19,773 nt of DNA from a virus, in the UHGV virus genome UHGV-0141098; one strand, 5' to 3'. Of the stretch, positions 3,936 to 19,773 are shown piece by piece (the first letter of the stretch is position 1; every line of letters begins with the position of its first letter). The notes beneath the pieces were generated by a model, which saw only the letters and a list, made by a program, of their open reading frames with translations, did not search any database and was not told where the DNA came from. The translations under genes were made by a program, and so were the position numbers.

Positions 3936-4005
3936 CCTGTCACCTACTGATTAGCCCATGTCAACTAATCAACGTGGAATATAATACCCTCAACTAAAGA
4001 AATAG

Positions 4006-4022
4006 CAATACATTAGAGCAAT
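4006..4022 (-). promoter_or_regulatory. C1-repressor-type operator upstream of lpa
   Basis: Minus strand reads ATTGCTCTAATGTATTG (core ATTGCTCTAAT exact). Followed by TTGCTA -35-like and TATTAT -10-like elements before the lpa Shine-Dalgarno. Begins 1 nt after the stop of the upstream 347-aa gene. Confidence 0.55.
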
Positions 4023-4023
4023 T

Positions 4024-5067
4024 TTATCTAACACTCGACGAATGACTTGTGATAACGCCGACTCCAAGCGCGTAATCAAAGAACAATCGTTGATGCATCG
4101 CCAGCCTACCGTGCGTCTTCTCCCAATTATCGCGGTCACGCTCAATATCACGCTGGCATGACTGGCACAGAGGAATTGCGTAAATGTCATGCGCGCATAA
4201 TCGACTATGACGAACGATATAAGGCGTAATGTGAGCGCCAGCTCCCGCCGCTCCGCACCCACAGCATGGACGGGAAGCAACAAAGTCCATGTACTCAGGT
4301 AATTTTAGCGATTGCAGTTTTGGTATTTTGAAATGCGCCATGCCAGGGTCGGAGTCAACATCCACAGGGCATACTTTTGCACGCATCGGCGCGGCGCGTT
4401 CTTCCATCATCTGAACATATGCTGTAGCGCGATCGTCATACGGGCGAATATCCGCCTCTTTCAGAGGTCCGCTATCCTGCGTTGCGGCTTTCATCTTATT
4501 TATTGATATACGGCAAACTTCTTCCGGCATCAGGTGCATCATGTTGCACATGAAAGCCCACCAGCACAGTTCCTGAATACTTAAATCATGGCCATCTGAA
4601 AGCCCCATTTCCTGACGGGCGACATCCAGTATCCAGTTAACGCGATTATTGTGCAGCGTTTCTTTCAGCTCATTAAAACCACGCATCCGGTAATGGTTAT
4701 CGTGATGCCAGCACAACAACACCGCGCTATTGTCTCGTTCAGCGTGGACAATATGGTTGTCACACCAACTACGATCTGCGGCCTGGCATTGCCCCTCTTT
4801 CCTGCGCAACCACGCCACCAGCGAGTCAATTCCACCAATACGGCGAAACAGTTCATCGCTGTTAAAAAACGGCTGCAACGCCTCATTTGTTGCCATAGTT
4901 TGCTCGGAAACAACGAGGCCGTCGTCCATGTGCTCGATTAACTCACGCGGCACCGGCTCCATAATAAATTTACGGCCAGCCTCCACCAGCTTTCTGACTT
5001 CCTGATCCACTTTGAATGTGGCGACGCCAAGCTCTTTTTGTACAAAGGGAGTAATAATGGCTTTCAC
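4024..5067 (-). CDS. hypothetical protein, 347 aa, at the position of P1 pdcB (post-doc); C-terminal Cys/His-rich motif
   Basis: GTG start with AAGGTG Shine-Dalgarno. C-terminal segment [38 protein letters not shown] resembles an HNH/zinc-binding motif. Identity with pdcB is positional only. Confidence 0.55.
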
Positions 5068-5094
5068 ATCACACCTTTCATCACTGATTGGGCT

Positions 5095-7615: not shown

Positions 7616-7619
<4 letters not shown>
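6057..7619 (+). CDS. hsdM: Type I restriction-modification N6-adenine DNA methyltransferase subunit HsdM, 520 aa
   Basis: AdoMet-binding motif [10 protein letters not shown] and catalytic NPPY motif (SNPPYSVKW). N-terminus [17 protein letters not shown] matches EcoR124-family HsdM as recalled. Stop overlaps the hsdS start (ATGA). Confidence 0.95.
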
Positions 7620-8836
<1,217 letters not shown>

Positions 8837-12324: not shown

Positions 12325-12341
12325 AGATTTATTAGAGCAAT
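12325..12341 (-). promoter_or_regulatory. C1-repressor-type operator with overlapping promoter-like elements
   Basis: Minus strand reads ATTGCTCTAATAAATCT (16/17 to consensus). Its first base is the last base of the upstream gene's stop codon. -35-like TTGCTC, a 17-nt spacer, then TAAAAC. Confidence 0.6.
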
Positions 12342-12847
12342 TATTGTTGATGAAGAAGCGCATTTTCATACTCCCTGACCATTAACGTAAGTACGCCGTG
12401 ACTCCTGAAAACACGCGCCACTTCAATCTTATCTTCCAGCGCGAACGCAATTTTACTTAGACCAATTTTCTTCAGGAGATCAATCTTTGCTGGACCGTCA
12501 TTTCTGTCATCGGTGGCAGGACGCATAGATAGCAAAGGCTCAGCCCCATTTGTTACGTGCTTACGCAACCAGGCTCGTGTTTTATCCCTGGCTATCTCAC
12601 AGCGCCCGGTTACAAACCAGAGGGTGTAAATGCCGGACAACTGGCGCACCATATCAATAACTGGAGTGATGGGAGCATCAGTGTCACAGGCAAGGTTAAA
12701 CTCGTTCCAGTGCTCTGTTAATGCACCTTTACCTGGTGGCGGAAGCAAATGCAGTCTGTCTTCAGTTGCCTCTGATATTGTTCCATCAATATCGACTATG
12801 ACGATGTACGGACGTTCCTGGTGTGCGTGTTTATTGTAAATACTCAA
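12341..12847 (-). CDS. HAD-superfamily phosphatase-like protein, 168 aa
   Basis: N-terminal HAD motif I (IVIVDIDGTISE, DxDGT). TTG start with GGAGG 4 nt upstream. No closer assignment possible from sequence alone. Confidence 0.6.
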   Translation of the reverse strand: MSIYNKHAHQERPYIVIVDIDGTISEATEDRLHLLPPPGKGALTEHWNEFNLACDTDAPITPVIDMVRQLSGIYTLWFVTGRCEIARDKTRAWLRKHVTNGAEPLLSMRPATDDRNDGPAKIDLLKKIGLSKIAFALEDKIEVARVFRSHGVLTLMVREYENALLHQQ

Positions 12848-12865
12848 ATGCCCTCCTCATTGGAC

Positions 12866-12900
12866 GAAAAAAAATGCTGGTGGGCGCACTCCACCAGCAT
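12866..12900 (-). terminator. Rho-independent terminator ending the IS1-interrupted operon
   Basis: Perfect 10-bp stem ATGCTGGTGG/CCACCAGCAT with a 7-nt loop, followed on the minus strand by T8. Lies 20 bp past the stop of the 12921..13829 ORF. Confidence 0.7.
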
Positions 12901-12920
12901 TAAAAGTGACACTGTAACCA

Positions 12921-13815
12921 TCAGCGAACGTAAATAGTGCCGCCGTTCTCTTTTTCCCATGCATCGCTACGTGCATAGCAAACATCGAGAAGTCTTCTTG
13001 CCGCAGTTTCCTCTAAACCCAATTCGACAACCAACTGCTCATGACGGCGGGTAACCACATCAAACAGGGTATGCAGCCCTTTAGTTGCCAGATCATCAAT
13101 GAATTCCGGTTCGAACGGCAGCTCTGCATCTGCCAACATAACCTCTTGCGCCCACTCAACTCGACGGACCAATTCCGGGCGGCGGCTTTCCATCTCTTTA
13201 CAGATCAATTCATGGAAGAACTCTACCCAACCTTCCGGCTGGAACTCGCGGAAAATTGCCAACGGCTGGAAGTTTGGCATCAACCATTCGTTGATTCGGA
13301 TATCAATGGCATAGCCCATGTCGCAGCAGAACTGATAAGCAAAGTCCAGCTTAGAAACGATATAAGGACGCTCGTTATTGAACTCTTTAGGCGATGAGAT
13401 CCCATAAGCCAGGAGGCGCGGGAAGAAGGAGATTTGCCCTAACGTCGGATGAAGTTTGCTTGCAGGGAAACGGCGCTCAGTAATGCCATACATTTCCTTC
13501 TTGAGCGTCGCAAATTTGGCATTCTCATTAACCAGCGCGGTAACCTCTGCTTTTTTATTAGCAAATGCCACGCGCGCTTCGCTTGCATCTTTAATAGTTT
13601 TTTTGAGCTGTTGGTTAAGGTCAGCGACCTGCTTACGCAGTTCCTGTCGCTCGCTTTTAGCTTTGTTATAGCGTTTCTCAAGGTTAAAAGGATCAAGTTT
13701 CATGATCTCTTTATATTGAGATTTTAGCGTTGAAATCTGTGAGTTCCGCAGTTCAACCATCGCGGTCATTTCATTGAGTTTTGTTTCCAGCTCAATGCTT
13801 ATACGTTCGGCATTA
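12921..13815 (-). pseudogene. 3' portion (about 295 codons) of a ~420-aa coiled-coil protein gene interrupted by IS1
   Basis: The track ORF 12921..13829 begins with a TTG inside the IS1 left inverted repeat. Its reading frame is continuous with the ORF 14584..14959 once IS1 and one copy of the 8-bp duplication are removed. Confidence 0.7.
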
Positions 13816-13870
13816 GGTAATGGTGCCAACTTACTGATTTAGTGTATGATGGTGTTTTTGAGGTGCTCCA

Positions 13871-14146
13871 GTGGCTTCTGTTTCTATCAGCTGTCCCTCC
13901 TGTTCAGCTACTGAAGGCGTGGTGCGTAACGGTAAAAGTACTGCCGGACATCAGCGCTATCTCTGCTCTCACTGCCGTAAAACATGGCAGCTACAGTTCA
14001 CTTACACCGCTTCTCAACCCGGTACGCATCAGAAAATCATTGATATGGCCATGAATGGCGTCGGATGTCGCGCCAGTGCACGCATTATGGGCGTTGGCCT
14101 CAACACGGTTTTACGTCACTTAAAAAACTCAGGCCGCAGTCGGTAA
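13871..14146 (+). CDS. insA: IS1 InsA (transposition inhibitor; N-terminal part of InsAB' transposase), 91 aa
   Basis: Protein [51 protein letters not shown]... matches IS1 InsA as recalled. Confidence 0.9.
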
Positions 14147-14568
14147 CCTCGCGCATACAACCGGGCAGTGATGTGATTGTCTGCGCTGAAATGGACGAAC
14201 AGTGGGGCTACGTCGGTGCTAAATCACGCCAGCGCTGGTTGTTTTACGCGTATGACAGGATACGGAGGACGGTTGTGGCGCACGTATTCGGTGAACGCAC
14301 GCTGGCCACGCTGGAGCGTCTTCCGGGCCTGCTGTCGGCCTTTGAGGTCGTGGTATGGATGACGGATGGCTGGCCGCTTTATGAATCACGCCTGAAGGGA
14401 GAACTGCACGTTATCAGCAAGCGATATACGCAGCGCATTGAGCGGCATAACCTGAATCTGAGGCAGCATCTGGCAAGGCTGGGCAGGAAGTCACTGTCGT
14501 TCTCAAAATCGGTGGAGCTGCATGACAAAGTCATCGGGCATTATCTGAACATAAAACACTATCAGTAA
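14065..14568 (+). CDS. insB: IS1 insB reading frame (expressed as InsAB' by -1 frameshift at the A6C motif)
   Basis: Frame encodes ...[26 protein letters not shown]...[15 protein letters not shown]...KHYQ, typical of IS1 InsB. The slippery motif AAAAAAC is intact at 14122-14128. Confidence 0.85.
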
Positions 14569-14583
14569 GTTGGAGTCATTACC

Positions 14584-14959
14584 CGGCATTATCAGCACGC
14601 TGGTTGGCGTCATGCGTCGCATCGTCGATCGCGTCCTGTTGCTGGCGTTTCAAATGTTCAATTTGCAGCTGAAGCTCTTCAATTTCTTTACCCTTCAGAC
14701 CGAGATCCAACTGCATATTTTCAGCTGCATCTACCAGGGAGTTATGGCTATCAGCTTCTGCGTTATAAACATCAATAAGCTGTGCGTGAAGCATCTCCGC
14801 TGACTGAACCGCATTATCAAAAAAACGTGCTGTGAGGTCATCACAACTAACGCGGCGTTGCGCGGCCCGGATGTTCTGGATAATGGCCGGGATACCGGCA
14901 TTCAGGACATCAGGGATAGATACATTTTCGATTGATTGGTTTTGTGCTGAAGTGCTCAT
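14584..14959 (-). pseudogene. 5' portion (125 codons) of the IS1-interrupted ~420-aa coiled-coil protein gene
   Basis: The track ORF 14579..14959 ends at a stop supplied by IS1 sequence. Its frame joins the 12921..13815 portion across the target duplication (...RADNA | ERISIELE...). Confidence 0.7.
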
Positions 14960-14960
14960 T

Positions 14961-15179
14961 TCAAAGTTCCGTATTAGCTTGTGCTTCGGTCATTTTTCCT
15001 AAGTATGAAGGTGGAAGGACTACGCAATTTGTATCCAGTCCCTCACCTATGGCAGCCTGTAAAATTCTGGCTAAGGTGAGTCTCTTGTTGCGATACCTGG
15101 TGATGACATGCCTGATACCGCCGGTCAGCGTAACAAAGGCGATCAGCCAGTAGTGATATTTCCGTCGGAATGGCCACAT
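14961..15179 (-). CDS. hypothetical protein, 72 aa, first gene of the IS1-interrupted operon
   Basis: AGGTG Shine-Dalgarno 4 nt before the ATG. One hydrophobic segment (YWLIAFVTLTGGI). Stop is 1 nt from the start of the downstream interrupted gene. Confidence 0.45.
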   Translation of the reverse strand: MWPFRRKYHYWLIAFVTLTGGIRHVITRYRNKRLTLARILQAAIGEGLDTNCVVLPPSYLGKMTEAQANTEL

Positions 15180-15193
15180 AGTGCACCTTATAG

Positions 15194-15210
15194 ATTGCTC
15201 TAATAAAAAA
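15194..15210 (+). promoter_or_regulatory. C1-repressor-type operator, plus orientation
   Basis: ATTGCTCTAATAAAAAA, 14/17 to consensus. Its A-tail runs directly into the hairpin at 15211-15231. Confidence 0.55.
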
Positions 15211-15240
15211 CGTGATGAGTGTACATCACGTTTTAAAAAT
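15205..15240. terminator. bidirectional Rho-independent terminator hairpin between the two operators
   Basis: Stem CGTGATG/CATCACG (7 bp, extendable by the flanking A/T runs) with a 7-nt loop. A-run on one side and T-run on the other, so a U-tract follows on either strand. Confidence 0.6.
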
Positions 15241-15242
15241 AT

Positions 15243-15259
15243 GGAATTATTAGAGCAAT
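15243..15259 (-). promoter_or_regulatory. C1-repressor-type operator, minus orientation
   Basis: Minus strand reads ATTGCTCTAATAATTCC (14/17, core exact). Begins 1 nt after the stop of the 233-aa gene. Followed by the same ATTTTTAAAAC element seen after the operator at 12325. Confidence 0.55.
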
Positions 15260-15260
15260 A

Positions 15261-15962
15261 TTATTCTGATTCTCGCTCAAAAAATGAGCTGATAAGGGGA
15301 AGCCAATCCTCTGACACTTCGCGAGGTCGCGGTTTGCCGTGGAAAAAGATTATTCGGCAGTCTTTTGGTAATGCCCCATTCCCCCTGGAGTAACGCGCGC
15401 TCGCATATTTCGAACCAGGTTCCACAACATCGGCCTTGTAACTTACAAACCATCCCGGATACAGATCCTGAAATGCTGGTGTATCATCACCCATAACCTT
15501 CCGCAAAAACCCCTGCTCACCCCAGCATTCAGTAGTAACACAACGAGCAATCCAACCTTCCGGATCTTGCCAGAATGCACTCCAGATATGCACTTTTACA
15601 CTATTTGGTATCCACAGGGCACCGCTGCCACGATATTGTGGATGGTAAAAATCCCTAAGCATGGTGAAGCTGGTTGGTGGATTCTCTAGGATTGGGCGTA
15701 TATCACCGGCAATAACCGTGTCCAAATCCAGATAGAACAGATCATCGGTTATATCCGGTCGGAACAACTCGATTTTCGCCCACCAGCCACGGCACTTTTG
15801 CCACTGGTTGATCAATGGGACAACTTTGACGCCAGGTACATGTAAACGCTTCAGGTCTGTCAGGCAAATAATTTCATAGCCTTTTGGCAGTTGATTAACC
15901 AGCCACTGCACATCGGAAGCGTTATAGTCACCACCAGAGCGAAGAACTAAAGCAATCTTCAT
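15261..15962 (-). CDS. hypothetical protein, 233 aa, with a DxD-like motif (possible nucleotide-sugar transferase)
   Basis: Segment [12 protein letters not shown] suggests a DxD-type metal/nucleotide-binding site. Start overlaps the phosphatase stop (ATGA). Functional call is tentative. Confidence 0.5.
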
Positions 15963-19111: not shown

Positions 19112-19773
19112 TCACACCAATCTGGTTAAACGGCAAACTAAGTGGTGGTAAAGACTGACATCGGCATTATTACTATCGCTGTGGAACATCACCCCGACGG
19201 GCTTACCACGGGTTTCCCATGCCATTTCCAGTGCTTTCATGGTAAGCCTGCTGTCCGGCGAGAACGACATGGCCCAGCCCACTGGTTTTCTTGCGAACAG
19301 GTCGAGAACAACGGCGAGGTACGCCCAGCGCTTACCCGTCCAGATATAGGTCACATCACCGCACCACACCTGATTTGGCTCGGTCACGGCGAACTGCCGT
19401 TCAAGGTAGTTAGGGATAGCAACATGTTCATGACCACCACGTTTATACCGGTGAGTCGGCTGCTGACAGCTGACCAGCCCCAGCTCTTTCATGAGCCTGC
19501 CAGCAAGCCAGCGTCCCATCTGGTAGCCTCTCCGGGTTGCCATTGTGGCAATGCTTCTTCCTCCGGCCGAACCGTGGCTGATGCCATGTAGCTCAAGTAC
19601 CTGACTGCGTAATACAGCCCGTCTGCCGTCTGGTTTTTCAAGACGGTTTTTCCAGTATCTGTAGCTGCTGCGATGAACCCCGAACACATGGCAGAGTGTG
19701 GCCACAGGATAATGCGCTCTGAGTTTCCCGATTATCGAGAACTGTTCAGGGAGTCTGACATCAAGAGCGCGGT
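19112..19773 (-). mobile_element. IS3-family element fragment (OrfB-like transposase N-terminal two-thirds, 19112..19705; runs off the window)
   Basis: Integrase-core pattern [34 protein letters not shown] ... HSD matches IS3-family OrfB. The ORF ends about 20 aa after the second catalytic Asp, before the expected Glu, so it is truncated. Confidence 0.6.

Follow-up and report, generated by a model that had tools for sequence, protein, structure and literature searches.

A P1-like phage-plasmid carries the pmgR-pmgS operon with pmgS split by an IS1 insertion

The window analysed here, a stretch of 19,773 nucleotides from the virus genome UHGV-0141098, contains a two-gene operon whose second gene is split by an insertion sequence, and this raises the question of what the operon is, what its broken gene encodes and what its loss means for the element that carries it. 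The initial annotation had regarded the split gene as a candidate for an undescribed function, with defence, anti-defence or lysogeny control as plausible roles given the neighbouring C1-type operators and restriction-modification (R-M) locus. Judged by sequence and synteny, the locus is the already named pmgR-pmgS operon of a P1-like phage-plasmid with a Punavirus backbone. Taking all lines of evidence together, we are highly confident in a reading in which this operon carries an IS1-split pmgS, most likely a tolerated null, and in which PmgS is probably a non-structural early factor.

Removal in silico of the IS1 and of one copy of the flanking repeat restores a single minus-strand ORF of 420 aa, with the junction ...QRADNA/ERISIELETKL... 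that had been proposed, and this ORF is identical to P1 PmgS (AAQ14063) at 419 of 420 residues (99.8%) and aligns over its full length (residues 1-420) with phrog_1660 (E 1.1e-195). PmgR, in turn, is identical to its P1 counterpart at 71 of 72 residues, with L18 here and P18 in P1 and P7, and matches phrog_3177 (E 9e-46). The flanks of the window share 98.7-98.9% DNA identity with P1, P7 and SJ46, the IS1 being the sole interruption, and pmgR/pmgS (shtA/shtB), PpmgR and the operators Op86a/b are annotated at homologous positions in the P1 (AF234172) and P7 records, ShtB being the P7 name for PmgS. The gene order is ...ppp-pmgQ, pmgR-pmgS, pap..., with the synteny pmgQ-pmgR-pmgS-pap lying behind Op86a/b as in those records. 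Such near-identity to P1 PmgS largely disposes of the claim that the gene was undescribed, as it has been both named and knocked out. The identity of the locus and the dispensability of pmgS were known before, and what is new is the domain architecture of PmgS and the genomic contexts of its homologues.

The inserted element has the attributes of the IS1 family, namely a length of about 768 bp, imperfect inverted repeats of about 23 bp (GGTAATGGTGCCAACTTACTGAT / GGTAATGACTCCAACTTACTGAT), insA (13871..14146, plus strand) and insB' (14065..14568, plus strand) with the A6C frameshift motif, and a target duplication of 8-9 bp. IS1 more usually duplicates 9 bp of its target than 8 bp; here perfect 8-bp direct repeats, CGGCATTA, flank the element on both sides, the bases next to them exclude a 9-bp duplication, and the single-copy target is found in P1 pmgS. 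By megablast the element shares 90.6-94.5% identity with full-length IS1 copies annotated in the records listed, and IS1F (94.5%) is the closest named isoform among the phage-record matches listed. Because the restored gene is nearly identical to P1 pmgS, with 8 nucleotide differences in 1263 nt, one residue changed in 420 aa and neither frameshift nor stop, a clean, single-step insertion is supported, and the earlier view that this is not old decay holds good.

As it stands, pmgS is not intact or expressible as a whole, being cut after codon 125 (Table 1). Its 5' fragment runs into IS1 and stops after one extra Gly, giving a 126-aa ORF (14579..14959). The 3' fragment, in which the 5'-most 7 nt are a duplicated copy of codons 124-125, encodes the latter half of the coiled coil together with the alpha/beta domain and (HhH)2 module; this fragment has no start of its own, the sole in-frame start being a TTG within the IS1 end (13829), and the ORF list gives it as 12921..13829. 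The split gene is most likely a null allele; the 126-aa stub could still be active or have acquired an activity, and IS1 may weakly drive transcription outward into the 3' fragment.

Table 1. Features of the pmgR-pmgS locus in the window, from the operators to the neighbouring genes.
Feature	Coordinates	Strand	Basis
OpmgRa (former Op86a), C1 operator, overlaps the -35 of PpmgR	15243..15259	-	consensus match and P1/P7 annotation
PpmgR, predicted sigma-70 promoter	15230..15258	-	transferred from P1 annotation
PpmgR -35 TTGCTC; -10 TAAAAC	15258..15253; 15235..15230	-	predicted
Terminator-like hairpin between the operators, 11-bp stem, 6-nt loop, then U run	15207..15234	-	RNA fold
OpmgRb (former Op86b), C1 operator	15194..15210	+	consensus match and P1/P7 annotation
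pmgR (ShtA in P7), 72 aa, intact	14961..15179	-	ORF list and P1 comparison
pmgS 5' fragment, codons 1-125	14585..14959	-	ORF list and in-silico restoration
Target-site duplication copy CGGCATTA	14584..14591	.	sequence
IS1-family element, 768 bp, insA and insB' opposite to pmgS	13816..14583	+	
Target-site duplication copy CGGCATTA	13808..13815	.	sequence
pmgS 3' fragment, codons 126-420 and stop	12921..13815	-	ORF list and P1 comparison
Intrinsic-terminator-like hairpin just past the pmgS stop, 11-bp stem, T run	12873..12901	-	
pap, 168 aa, HAD/PNKP-type 3'-phosphatase, downstream neighbour	12341..12847	-	
pmgQ (HdmD in P7; RefSeq: glycosyltransferase), upstream neighbour	15261..15962	-	

The C1-type operators ahead of the operon were correctly recognised from the start: five C1-operator matches occur in the whole window against 0.12 expected by chance, and the operator equivalent to OpmgRa is annotated in P1 AF234172 as one that 'controls expression of pmgR and pmgS' and is named Op(sht[a]) in P7. 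The intergenic sequence that holds PpmgR differs from that of P1 at one base, and a promoter scan of the window did not call PpmgR. We propose that this sigma-70 promoter would transcribe the operon and that C1 would repress it through the two 17-bp operators, Op86a covering the -35 and Op86b lying downstream of the start, so that C1 shut-off would keep the operon silent in the plasmid prophage and let it come on early after derepression; early expression has been reported in P1vir infection (bioRxiv 10.64898/2025.12.28.696737). The hairpin between the operators (-13.4 kcal/mol, z = -5.65) has a counterpart with another stem sequence at the equivalent position of a relative with 71% identity (L016), and we infer that this conserved structure is the terminator of the upstream ppp-pmgQ transcript, where it would probably stop read-through from pmgQ. 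The hairpin beyond pmgS, a putative strong terminator, closes the two-gene operon ahead of pap. According to this scheme, an intact IS1 would have entered pmgS at codon 125/126, in the opposite orientation and with an 8-bp duplication, and would have left an N-terminal stub of 126 aa and the C-terminal 295 codons with neither promoter nor start, with pmgR untouched upstream and pap beyond the terminator.

Such an insertion should be tolerated, given that neither deletion of P1 pmgS nor CRISPRi against it causes a plating defect. A P1 with an in-frame pmgS deletion is viable, shows 'normal restriction' and normal type I antirestriction and plates normally on EcoA, EcoB and EcoK hosts (PMC9024508 Table S3), and both CRISPRi and deletion score pmgS as non-essential in assays covering one host and one condition (PMC10695390). 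The gene pmgR is essential in P1, and its deletion leaves heads and tails unjoined (PMC9024508). Since pmgS is dispensable for phage growth, the IS1 event is an ordinary one. PmgS is, at the level of its coding sequence, a real, constrained protein under strong purifying selection: comparison with a 71%-identical homologue gives a pN of 0.175 and a pS of 0.78 (saturated), with the strongest constraint on the alpha/beta domain (pN 0.10).

Regarding architecture, modelling predicts for PmgS two long helices paired in a coiled-coil hairpin, an alpha/beta domain whose fold found no match and, at the C-terminus, an (HhH)2 module. The long N-terminal coiled coil noticed in the initial annotation is placed at aa 75-220 in the P1 record, and AlphaFold predicts helices at 42-160 and 166-232, with a conserved KLDP (residues 162-165) at the hairpin apex; the full-length AF2 model has a pLDDT of 72, and the model of the C-terminal domain a pLDDT of 93.5 and a pTM of 0.87. 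A C-terminal globular domain had also been noted, correctly, and the remark that it had no recognisable motif is fair for the protein taken alone, which reached the threshold of no Pfam model, PF03118 and PF14520 included. The family, however, does show the module: PF03118 matches 10 and PF14520 matches 9 of 30 homologues (E <= 0.01), and a profile of the family detects the RNAP alphaCTD (1doq, E 1.5e-7), the RAD51 NTD (E 4e-7) and NusA AR2 (E 7e-5), so that (HhH)2 membership holds for the family and not demonstrably for this sequence alone. The predicted module folds into five helices that include two helix-hairpin-helix motifs. The Gly-hydrophobic-Gly hairpin and the basic DNA-backbone surface are not found in the P1 clade, where the module carries ELGLEE instead of KGIGxK and a net charge of -8, whereas distant members retain KGIGxK and are neutral to basic; PmgS as a whole is acidic throughout (pI 4.6). 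Given this lost KGIG hairpin and strongly acidic module, direct DNA binding by P1-clade PmgS appears doubtful.

In Foldseek the full-length model aligned to the PDB only over its last ~57 residues (E >= 0.03), and the C-terminal model found nothing below E 0.03 in BFVD and no sensible superposition. Among 30 diverse members M1 and W409 are invariant and L75, P336, R341 and L365 nearly so, and with so few such residues there is no catalytic-type constellation; an enzymatic alpha/beta domain was therefore dropped. Matches to TPR, SMC, Rad50, LmuB and JetC in Pfam, NCBIfam and PADLOC were sub-threshold, compositional coiled-coil matches, and an SMC-type identity was rejected on the same grounds (18 bits against family cut-offs of 567-729). 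A full-text literature search returned nothing relevant on Op86, shtB or 'PmgS-like'.

Distant P1-like phages retain pmgR and pmgS as a pair, at 27% identity. Beyond the P1-like phages, homologues of PmgS have no accompanying pmgR and are located in early or accessory parts of prophages and plasmid-like elements. In an Aeromonas prophage the homologue is flanked by a DUF3799 protein/RecT on one side and Dam/RdgC on the other and is upstream of the integrase; other homologues lie beside DNA_methylase or MT-A70 genes (orphan DNA methyltransferases) or a DUF4942 protein, and one distant homologue is near Tad2-like and Sequestin genes. None of nine sampled loci had the homologue inside a virion-structural cluster; at one of them a terminase-ATPase gene lies ~3.6 kb downstream. 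Because of this domain architecture and of homologues located outside virion-structural clusters, PmgS is probably a non-structural early factor bearing a morphogenetic label, a reading based on fold resemblance and gene neighbourhood. Mechanistically, it would be a non-virion, early, acidic coiled-coil protein, most likely an elongated adaptor on DNA- or transcription-handling machinery in the cell rather than a head or sheath protein. More tentatively, and as something we consider possible rather than likely, PmgS and its ~370 homologue clusters might form a family of early accessory proteins in temperate phages and phage-plasmids for which the 'head morphogenesis' label is probably wrong, elongated acidic adaptors with a coiled coil, whose alphaCTD/NusA-AR-like end docks on RNAP alpha, NusA or the recombination machinery and thereby modulates host takeover, recombination or counter-defence. 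If so, the IS1 allele would be a natural knockout, and PmgS would be unneeded for maintenance of the plasmid prophage.

The labels themselves conflict, pmgS being a 'putative morphogenetic function' in P1, 'sheath contraction' in P7 and 'head morphogenesis' in PHROGs, and they correspond to the best surviving alternative, namely that PmgS is a virion morphogenesis protein which, jointly with PmgR, serves tail function or the completion of heads, in which case the IS1 would cripple particle quality. Sharing an operon with pmgR, with its unjoined heads and tails on deletion, and the persistence of the pair in distant P1-like phages speak for it, as does the occurrence of long coiled coils in scaffolds and chaperones, to which a weak Phage_scaffold match (E 0.77) may be added. 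Plaques are nevertheless normal after both deletion and knockdown, and the paper on the P1 virion proteome nowhere mentions PmgS in its main text, proteome table included (PMC9024508), and these results argue against membership of the virion or of a morphogenetic pathway. Moreover, the promoter is early and C1-controlled, with a late promoter annotated nowhere in the P1 record, the homologues without pmgR sit among early, recombination and methylase genes, and the C-terminal fold is of a nucleic-acid/transcription-factor module type. We consider this alternative rather unlikely.

Still less probable, in our view, is that pmgS is a cargo gene, hitherto undescribed, that serves defence, anti-defence or lysogeny control and is functionally tied to the neighbouring R-M locus. 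C1 control, the lack of an assigned biochemical role, acidity like that of some DNA mimics, and homologues near Tad2-like/Sequestin, orphan methyltransferase, DUF4942 and recombination genes would all fit it. The synteny, however, refutes the cargo reading: pmgR and pmgS belong to the conserved backbone, occur in P1, P7, SJ46 and RCS47 and are on a list of 21 genes described as 'extremely conserved' in P1-like phage-plasmids (PMC9603915), and pmgS is found at >=95% identity in 674 complete E. coli genomes (~12% of them all). The type IC hsdMSR cassette fills a known variable region, where P1 has pmgT..humD, and its adjacency to pmgS is accordingly incidental. In addition, the pmgS deletion mutant plates normally on the three restricting hosts, and a PADLOC-DB 2.0 search, by which the defence idea was checked, returned coiled-coil noise only (best E 1.4e-4, 18 bits, on LmuB coiled-coil segments) and no match for PmgR.

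Uninterrupted copies, the search for which had been suggested, are the rule, pmgS being contiguous in 660 of the 674 carrier genomes (98%). The exact IS1 junction, counted with a junction-specific query that returned a single record, occurs in 1 of 72,556 PLSDB plasmids and 1 of 5,426 complete E. coli genomes, the sole public plasmid being that of E. coli G5 (NZ_CP060066.1); the 106 plasmids with IS1 in pmgS suggested by a first plasmid search have their IS1 beside an intact pmgS, not inside it. Only 2 SNPs, an indel of 12 bp, a single patch of 32 SNPs and two additional ISs, located in hsdS and hsdR of G5, distinguish the window from the G5 plasmid. An ISSen4 also separates icd from the antirepressor gene in this lineage, which harbours many further ISs. 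The IS1 hit is recent, lineage-specific and probably neutral, in an IS-rich plasmid lineage. That it was instead selected, as a step of domestication to a pure plasmid or as removal of a costly or toxic early gene, is very unlikely: the allele is indeed common to two non-identical plasmids of this IS-laden lineage, and other rearranged pmgS alleles exist in the databases, but the two carriers are nearly identical and count as one event, at most 14 of 674 genomes lack a contiguous pmgS and so show no sign of recurrent selection for loss, a gene repressed in the prophage should cost little, and in an IS-rich lineage a chance hit is the simpler explanation.

In the role for which it was flagged, the locus matters little, being an IS1 in a named, non-essential P1 gene and an allele already in a public plasmid record. 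Its residual value is one of annotation and hypothesis, since the gene carries three conflicting labels while domain analysis and neighbourhoods point to an early intracellular role. It also gives a warning that backbone genes abutting a variable R-M island should not be taken as 'cargo'.

Compared with the pmgR-pmgS operon of P1 (shtA-shtB in P7), the genes, their order, the operators, promoter and terminator are the same here, whereas pmgS is broken by IS1 after codon 125 and the region beyond pap differs as described. With respect to the IS1 family, length, inverted repeats, the insA/insB' A6C site and the perfect duplication are canonical; the insertion site differs from that of the resident IS1 of P1, which lies between isaA and isaB, and the isoform is divergent, with 91.7% identity over a partial match of 591 bp to the IS1 in a P1 fragment record of 7.9 kb. 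PmgS has a long helical coiled coil in common with SMC/Rad50/MukB proteins (including LmuB and JetC), on whose arms the weak profile matches fall, but it is without an ATPase head, hinge or zinc hook, and its sequence contains neither a P-loop nor Walker A/B motifs. In contrast to the RNAP alphaCTD (PF03118), the RAD51/RadA NTD and NusA AR1/AR2, the predicted PmgS module is joined to a coiled coil of ~190 residues and to an alpha/beta domain, and among such (HhH)2 modules that of P1-clade PmgS is nearest in character to NusA AR.

The gene split by IS1 is pmgS of bacteriophage P1, and uninterrupted copies of it are the rule. When 12700..15400 was compared with phage records by megablast, all but the IS1 element matched P1, P7, SJ46, RCS47 and relatives at 98.3-98.9%, the features annotated beneath the match being pmgQ, pmgR, pmgS and pap. 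At the homologous positions the P1 record (AF234172) carries pmgS ('putative morphogenetic function; region of aa 75-220 contains coiled-coil domain'), pmgR, a predicted promoter PpmgR and the operators OpmgRa and OpmgRb (former Op86a/b), with the comment 'controls expression of pmgR and pmgS'; in P7 the two genes are named shtA and shtB and bear 'sheath' labels. The restored protein is identical to P1 PmgS at 419 of 420 residues (8 of 1263 nucleotides differ) and matches phrog_1660, 'PmgS-like head morphogenesis', over its whole length (E 1e-195). Therefore, the gene put forward in the initial annotation as a candidate for an undescribed function is known and named, as are the P1 pmgR-pmgS operon and its Op86 operators. 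PmgR is identical to P1 PmgR at 71 of 72 residues; its codon 18 encodes Leu, against Pro in P1 as well as P7.

Features of the pmgR-pmgS region
Feature	Position	Strand	Remark
Terminator	12901..12873		strong; between pmgS and pap
pmgS, 3' part	13815..12921	-	
Target-site repeats, identical 8 bp, CGGCATTA	13808..13815 and 14584..14591		flanking IS1
IS1-family element, 768 bp	13816..14583	+ (insA/insB' strand)	terminal inverted repeats GGTAATG...
insA	13871..14146	+	within IS1
insB'	14065..14568	+	within IS1
pmgS, 5' part	14959..14585	-	
72-codon ORF (pmgR)	14961..15179	-	one base upstream of pmgS
C1-operator match (OpmgRb)	15194..15210	+	
Terminator-like hairpin	15234..15207	-	11-bp stem then U run; between the two operators
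PpmgR -10, annotated	15235..15230		predicted
C1-operator match (OpmgRa)	15243..15259	-	

The anatomy first proposed for this operon, a 72-aa gene behind C1-type operators followed by a gene of about 420 codons with a clean IS1 insertion, was recovered in full. In silico loss of IS1 and one repeat yields a single 420-codon frame with the same junction, QRADNA being joined to ERISIELETKL, and a 9-bp duplication is excluded by the bases next to the 8-bp repeats. The element, which retains the A6C frameshift site, lies antisense to pmgS. Translation of the 5' part would now stop after residues 1-125 and one Gly, while for the 3' part (residues 126-420), cut off from its native start, the sole start is a TTG within the IS1 end. 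The terminator between pmgS and pap makes a significant polar effect on pap improbable, and pmgR, upstream of the insertion, is intact. In P1, pmgR is essential, its deletion leaving heads and tails unjoined and pmgR in trans restoring plaque formation (PMC9024508). P1 with an in-frame delta-pmgS is still infectious, and Table S3 of PMC9024508 records 'normal restriction' for it on EcoA, EcoB and EcoK hosts; pmgS is also non-essential by CRISPRi (PMC10695390). From these genetics the pmgS::IS1 allele is most likely a tolerated null.

The two operators are among five C1-operator matches in the whole window, against 0.12 expected by chance. The P1 record has no annotation for the hairpin between them (-13.4 kcal/mol, z = -5.65), which has a counterpart, built on another stem sequence, at the equivalent position of a 71%-identity relative (L016, ~4728..4752). 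Because the annotated -10 of PpmgR overlaps the 5' arm of the window's hairpin, transcripts started at PpmgR would lack the full stem and read-through from pmgQ would contain it. From this arrangement of sequence elements we infer an insulator role for the hairpin, keeping pmgR-pmgS apart from the operon upstream; it may end pmgQ read-through and spare transcripts begun at PpmgR.

Among 5,426 complete E. coli genomes, pmgS was found in 674, always with at least 95% identity, and in 660 of these carriers it ran contiguously over 80% or more of the gene. The exact pmgS/IS1 junction has a single hit in PLSDB and a single hit among the complete genomes, and both are one public record, NZ_CP060066.1, a plasmid from E. 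coli G5, isolated in Germany from the faeces of a healthy human. The window is not itself this record, given that G5 has ISKpn26 in hsdS and IS903B in hsdR and the window neither; these two aside, the differences across ~19 kb amount to 2 SNPs, a 12-bp indel and a patch of 32 SNPs. The window and the G5 plasmid are very close relatives, from an IS-rich lineage, that inherited one recent insertion. The 32-substitution patch (19379..19718) looks like a short recombination tract inside ORF 19112..19705, the rest of the 19 kb being nearly identical. A second IS insertion lies in a regulatory or lytic-control region of the same element: the window begins within an ISSen4 copy (IS3 family), whose 3' end covers positions 1..~100, and in the G5 plasmid (L005) ISSen4 lies at 3951..5071 between icd and a KilAC-domain antirepressor gene, inside the immI operon.

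A set of 106 plasmids apparently bearing IS1 in pmgS proved to be an artefact, IS1 copies beside intact pmgS having been joined to it. Many P1-like or hybrid plasmids (for example NZ_CP029493.1 and NZ_CP070923.1) do have IS1 within ~0.5 kb of intact pmgS, in place either of pap on one side or of pmgR/pmgQ on the other, and IS1 may mark recurrent recombination breakpoints around the pmgS block. Other rearranged pmgS alleles in public data include a foreign 20-aa N-terminus joined at about codon 100 (P0008, in a cluster of 486 members, many perhaps contig-end fragments), a ppp::pmgS fusion with pmgQ, pmgR and the pmgS 5' end deleted (P0016), a replaced C-terminus (P0005), a Dcm-methylase N-terminus fused to PmgS (P0002) and a frameshifted copy (P0024).

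Searched alone against Pfam, NCBIfam and PADLOC, restored PmgS gave no match past coiled-coil noise. A first homology search returned 29 clusters, almost all on P1-like contigs of ~90-98 kb, with PF14520 carried by one 27%-identity member; a profile run against 1.84 billion representatives recovered 118 relatives, most of them 370-470 aa long with full-length matches, and a second search, against an index, gave 374 clusters, including many 405-aa Aeromonas proteins, several on chromosome-sized contigs. Some members of these clusters are named 'RNA polymerase alpha subunit C-terminal domain-containing' in UniRef; the last 56 positions of the family profile match RNAP alphaCTD (1doq, E 1.5e-7), the RAD51 NTD (4e-7) and NusA AR2 (7e-5), and among 30 members PF03118 was matched by 10 and PF14520 by 9.

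In the full-length AF2 model (pLDDT 72) an N-terminal helix is followed by two long ones, 42-160 and 166-232, and then by a globular C-terminal part. The long helices, with a conserved KLDP apex between them, are read as a hairpin whose packing is modelled with low pTM and little confidence; residues 228-420 are modelled confidently from a 90-sequence alignment (pLDDT 93.5, pTM 0.87). Against the 71%-identical homologue pN is 0.175 and pS 0.78 (saturated), the alpha/beta domain being the most constrained part (pN 0.10). PmgS is acidic throughout, and because the (HhH)2 module of the P1 clade has a net charge of -8 and ELGLEE in place of the KGIGxK of distant members, protein binding, as by NusA acidic repeats, fits this clade better than DNA binding.

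In distant P1-like phages (27% PmgS identity) the gene immediately upstream encodes a PmgR homologue, 36% and 26% identical to PmgR, and darB-like, pap-like, lpa and parM genes recur, not every gene at each locus; other loci of PmgS homologues have no pmgR. There, homologues adjoin a DNA_methylase gene near ParM/ParE, an MT-A70 gene (contig L007) or DUF4942, NUDIX and NinX genes, these last followed ~3.6 kb further downstream by a terminase-ATPase (GpA) gene, or lie near a ParA-like gene or near Tad2-like and Sequestin genes. In an Aeromonas prophage the homologue belongs to a rightward block spanning from repressor-type HTH genes to the integrase gene, in the order DUF3799 protein, RecT, 362-aa protein, PmgS-like, Dam, RdgC ... 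integrase. The 362-aa protein (L006 8862..9950) is also coiled-coil, making the block a compact recombination-type module with two long coiled-coil proteins.

None of nine sampled loci placed the homologue within a virion-structural gene cluster, PmgS does not occur in the main text of the P1 virion-proteome paper (PMC9024508), and its transcript appears early in P1vir infection (bioRxiv 10.64898/2025.12.28.696737). Taken with early, C1-controlled expression and the viable knockout, these observations favour a non-structural role, early and inside the cell, over the morphogenetic one with which PmgS is labelled. That PmgS helps PmgR in morphogenesis is a live rival, with the pairing of the genes in P1-like phages on its side and the pmgR-free loci on the other; so is a counter-defence function, with a Tad2-like neighbour on one hand and the normal restriction of P1 delta-pmgS on the other. 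Our best guess is an adaptor on transcription, recombination or DNA-handling machinery. The novelty is modest: the domain make-up and wider-family contexts speak against the current 'morphogenesis' annotation, and a protein without assigned function is strongly conserved.

The initial annotation had also held it plausible that the operon, next to the R-M locus, was defence, anti-defence or lysogeny-control cargo, and this part of its interpretation did not stand. The window reads pacB-pacA-lpa-pdcB-doc-phd / hsdM-hsdS-hsdR / pap-pmgS::IS1-pmgR-pmgQ-ppp-pmgP-pmgO..., with hsdM-hsdS-hsdR in the pap-phd interval that in P1 carries pmgT..humD. This interval is among eight known hypervariable regions of P1-like phage-plasmids, whereas pmgR and pmgS are listed among 21 'extremely conserved' genes (PMC9603915). 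Since, in addition, the P1 record notes that the pap-pmgT spacer shares homology with the downstream flanks of the EcoDXXI and R124/3 hsd loci, adjacency to the R-M locus is incidental and pmgR-pmgS is backbone.

Within the central region of the type IC hsdS gene (7616..8836, +), positions 8114..8149 hold the 12-bp unit CTTACCGCTGAG three times in tandem, translated in frame as LTAE x3, i.e. a TAEL repeat; hsdS of the G5 plasmid has one unit fewer. We take this repeat to be a switch of the EcoR124I/EcoR124II type, in which unequal crossing-over alters the length of the recognition-site spacer.
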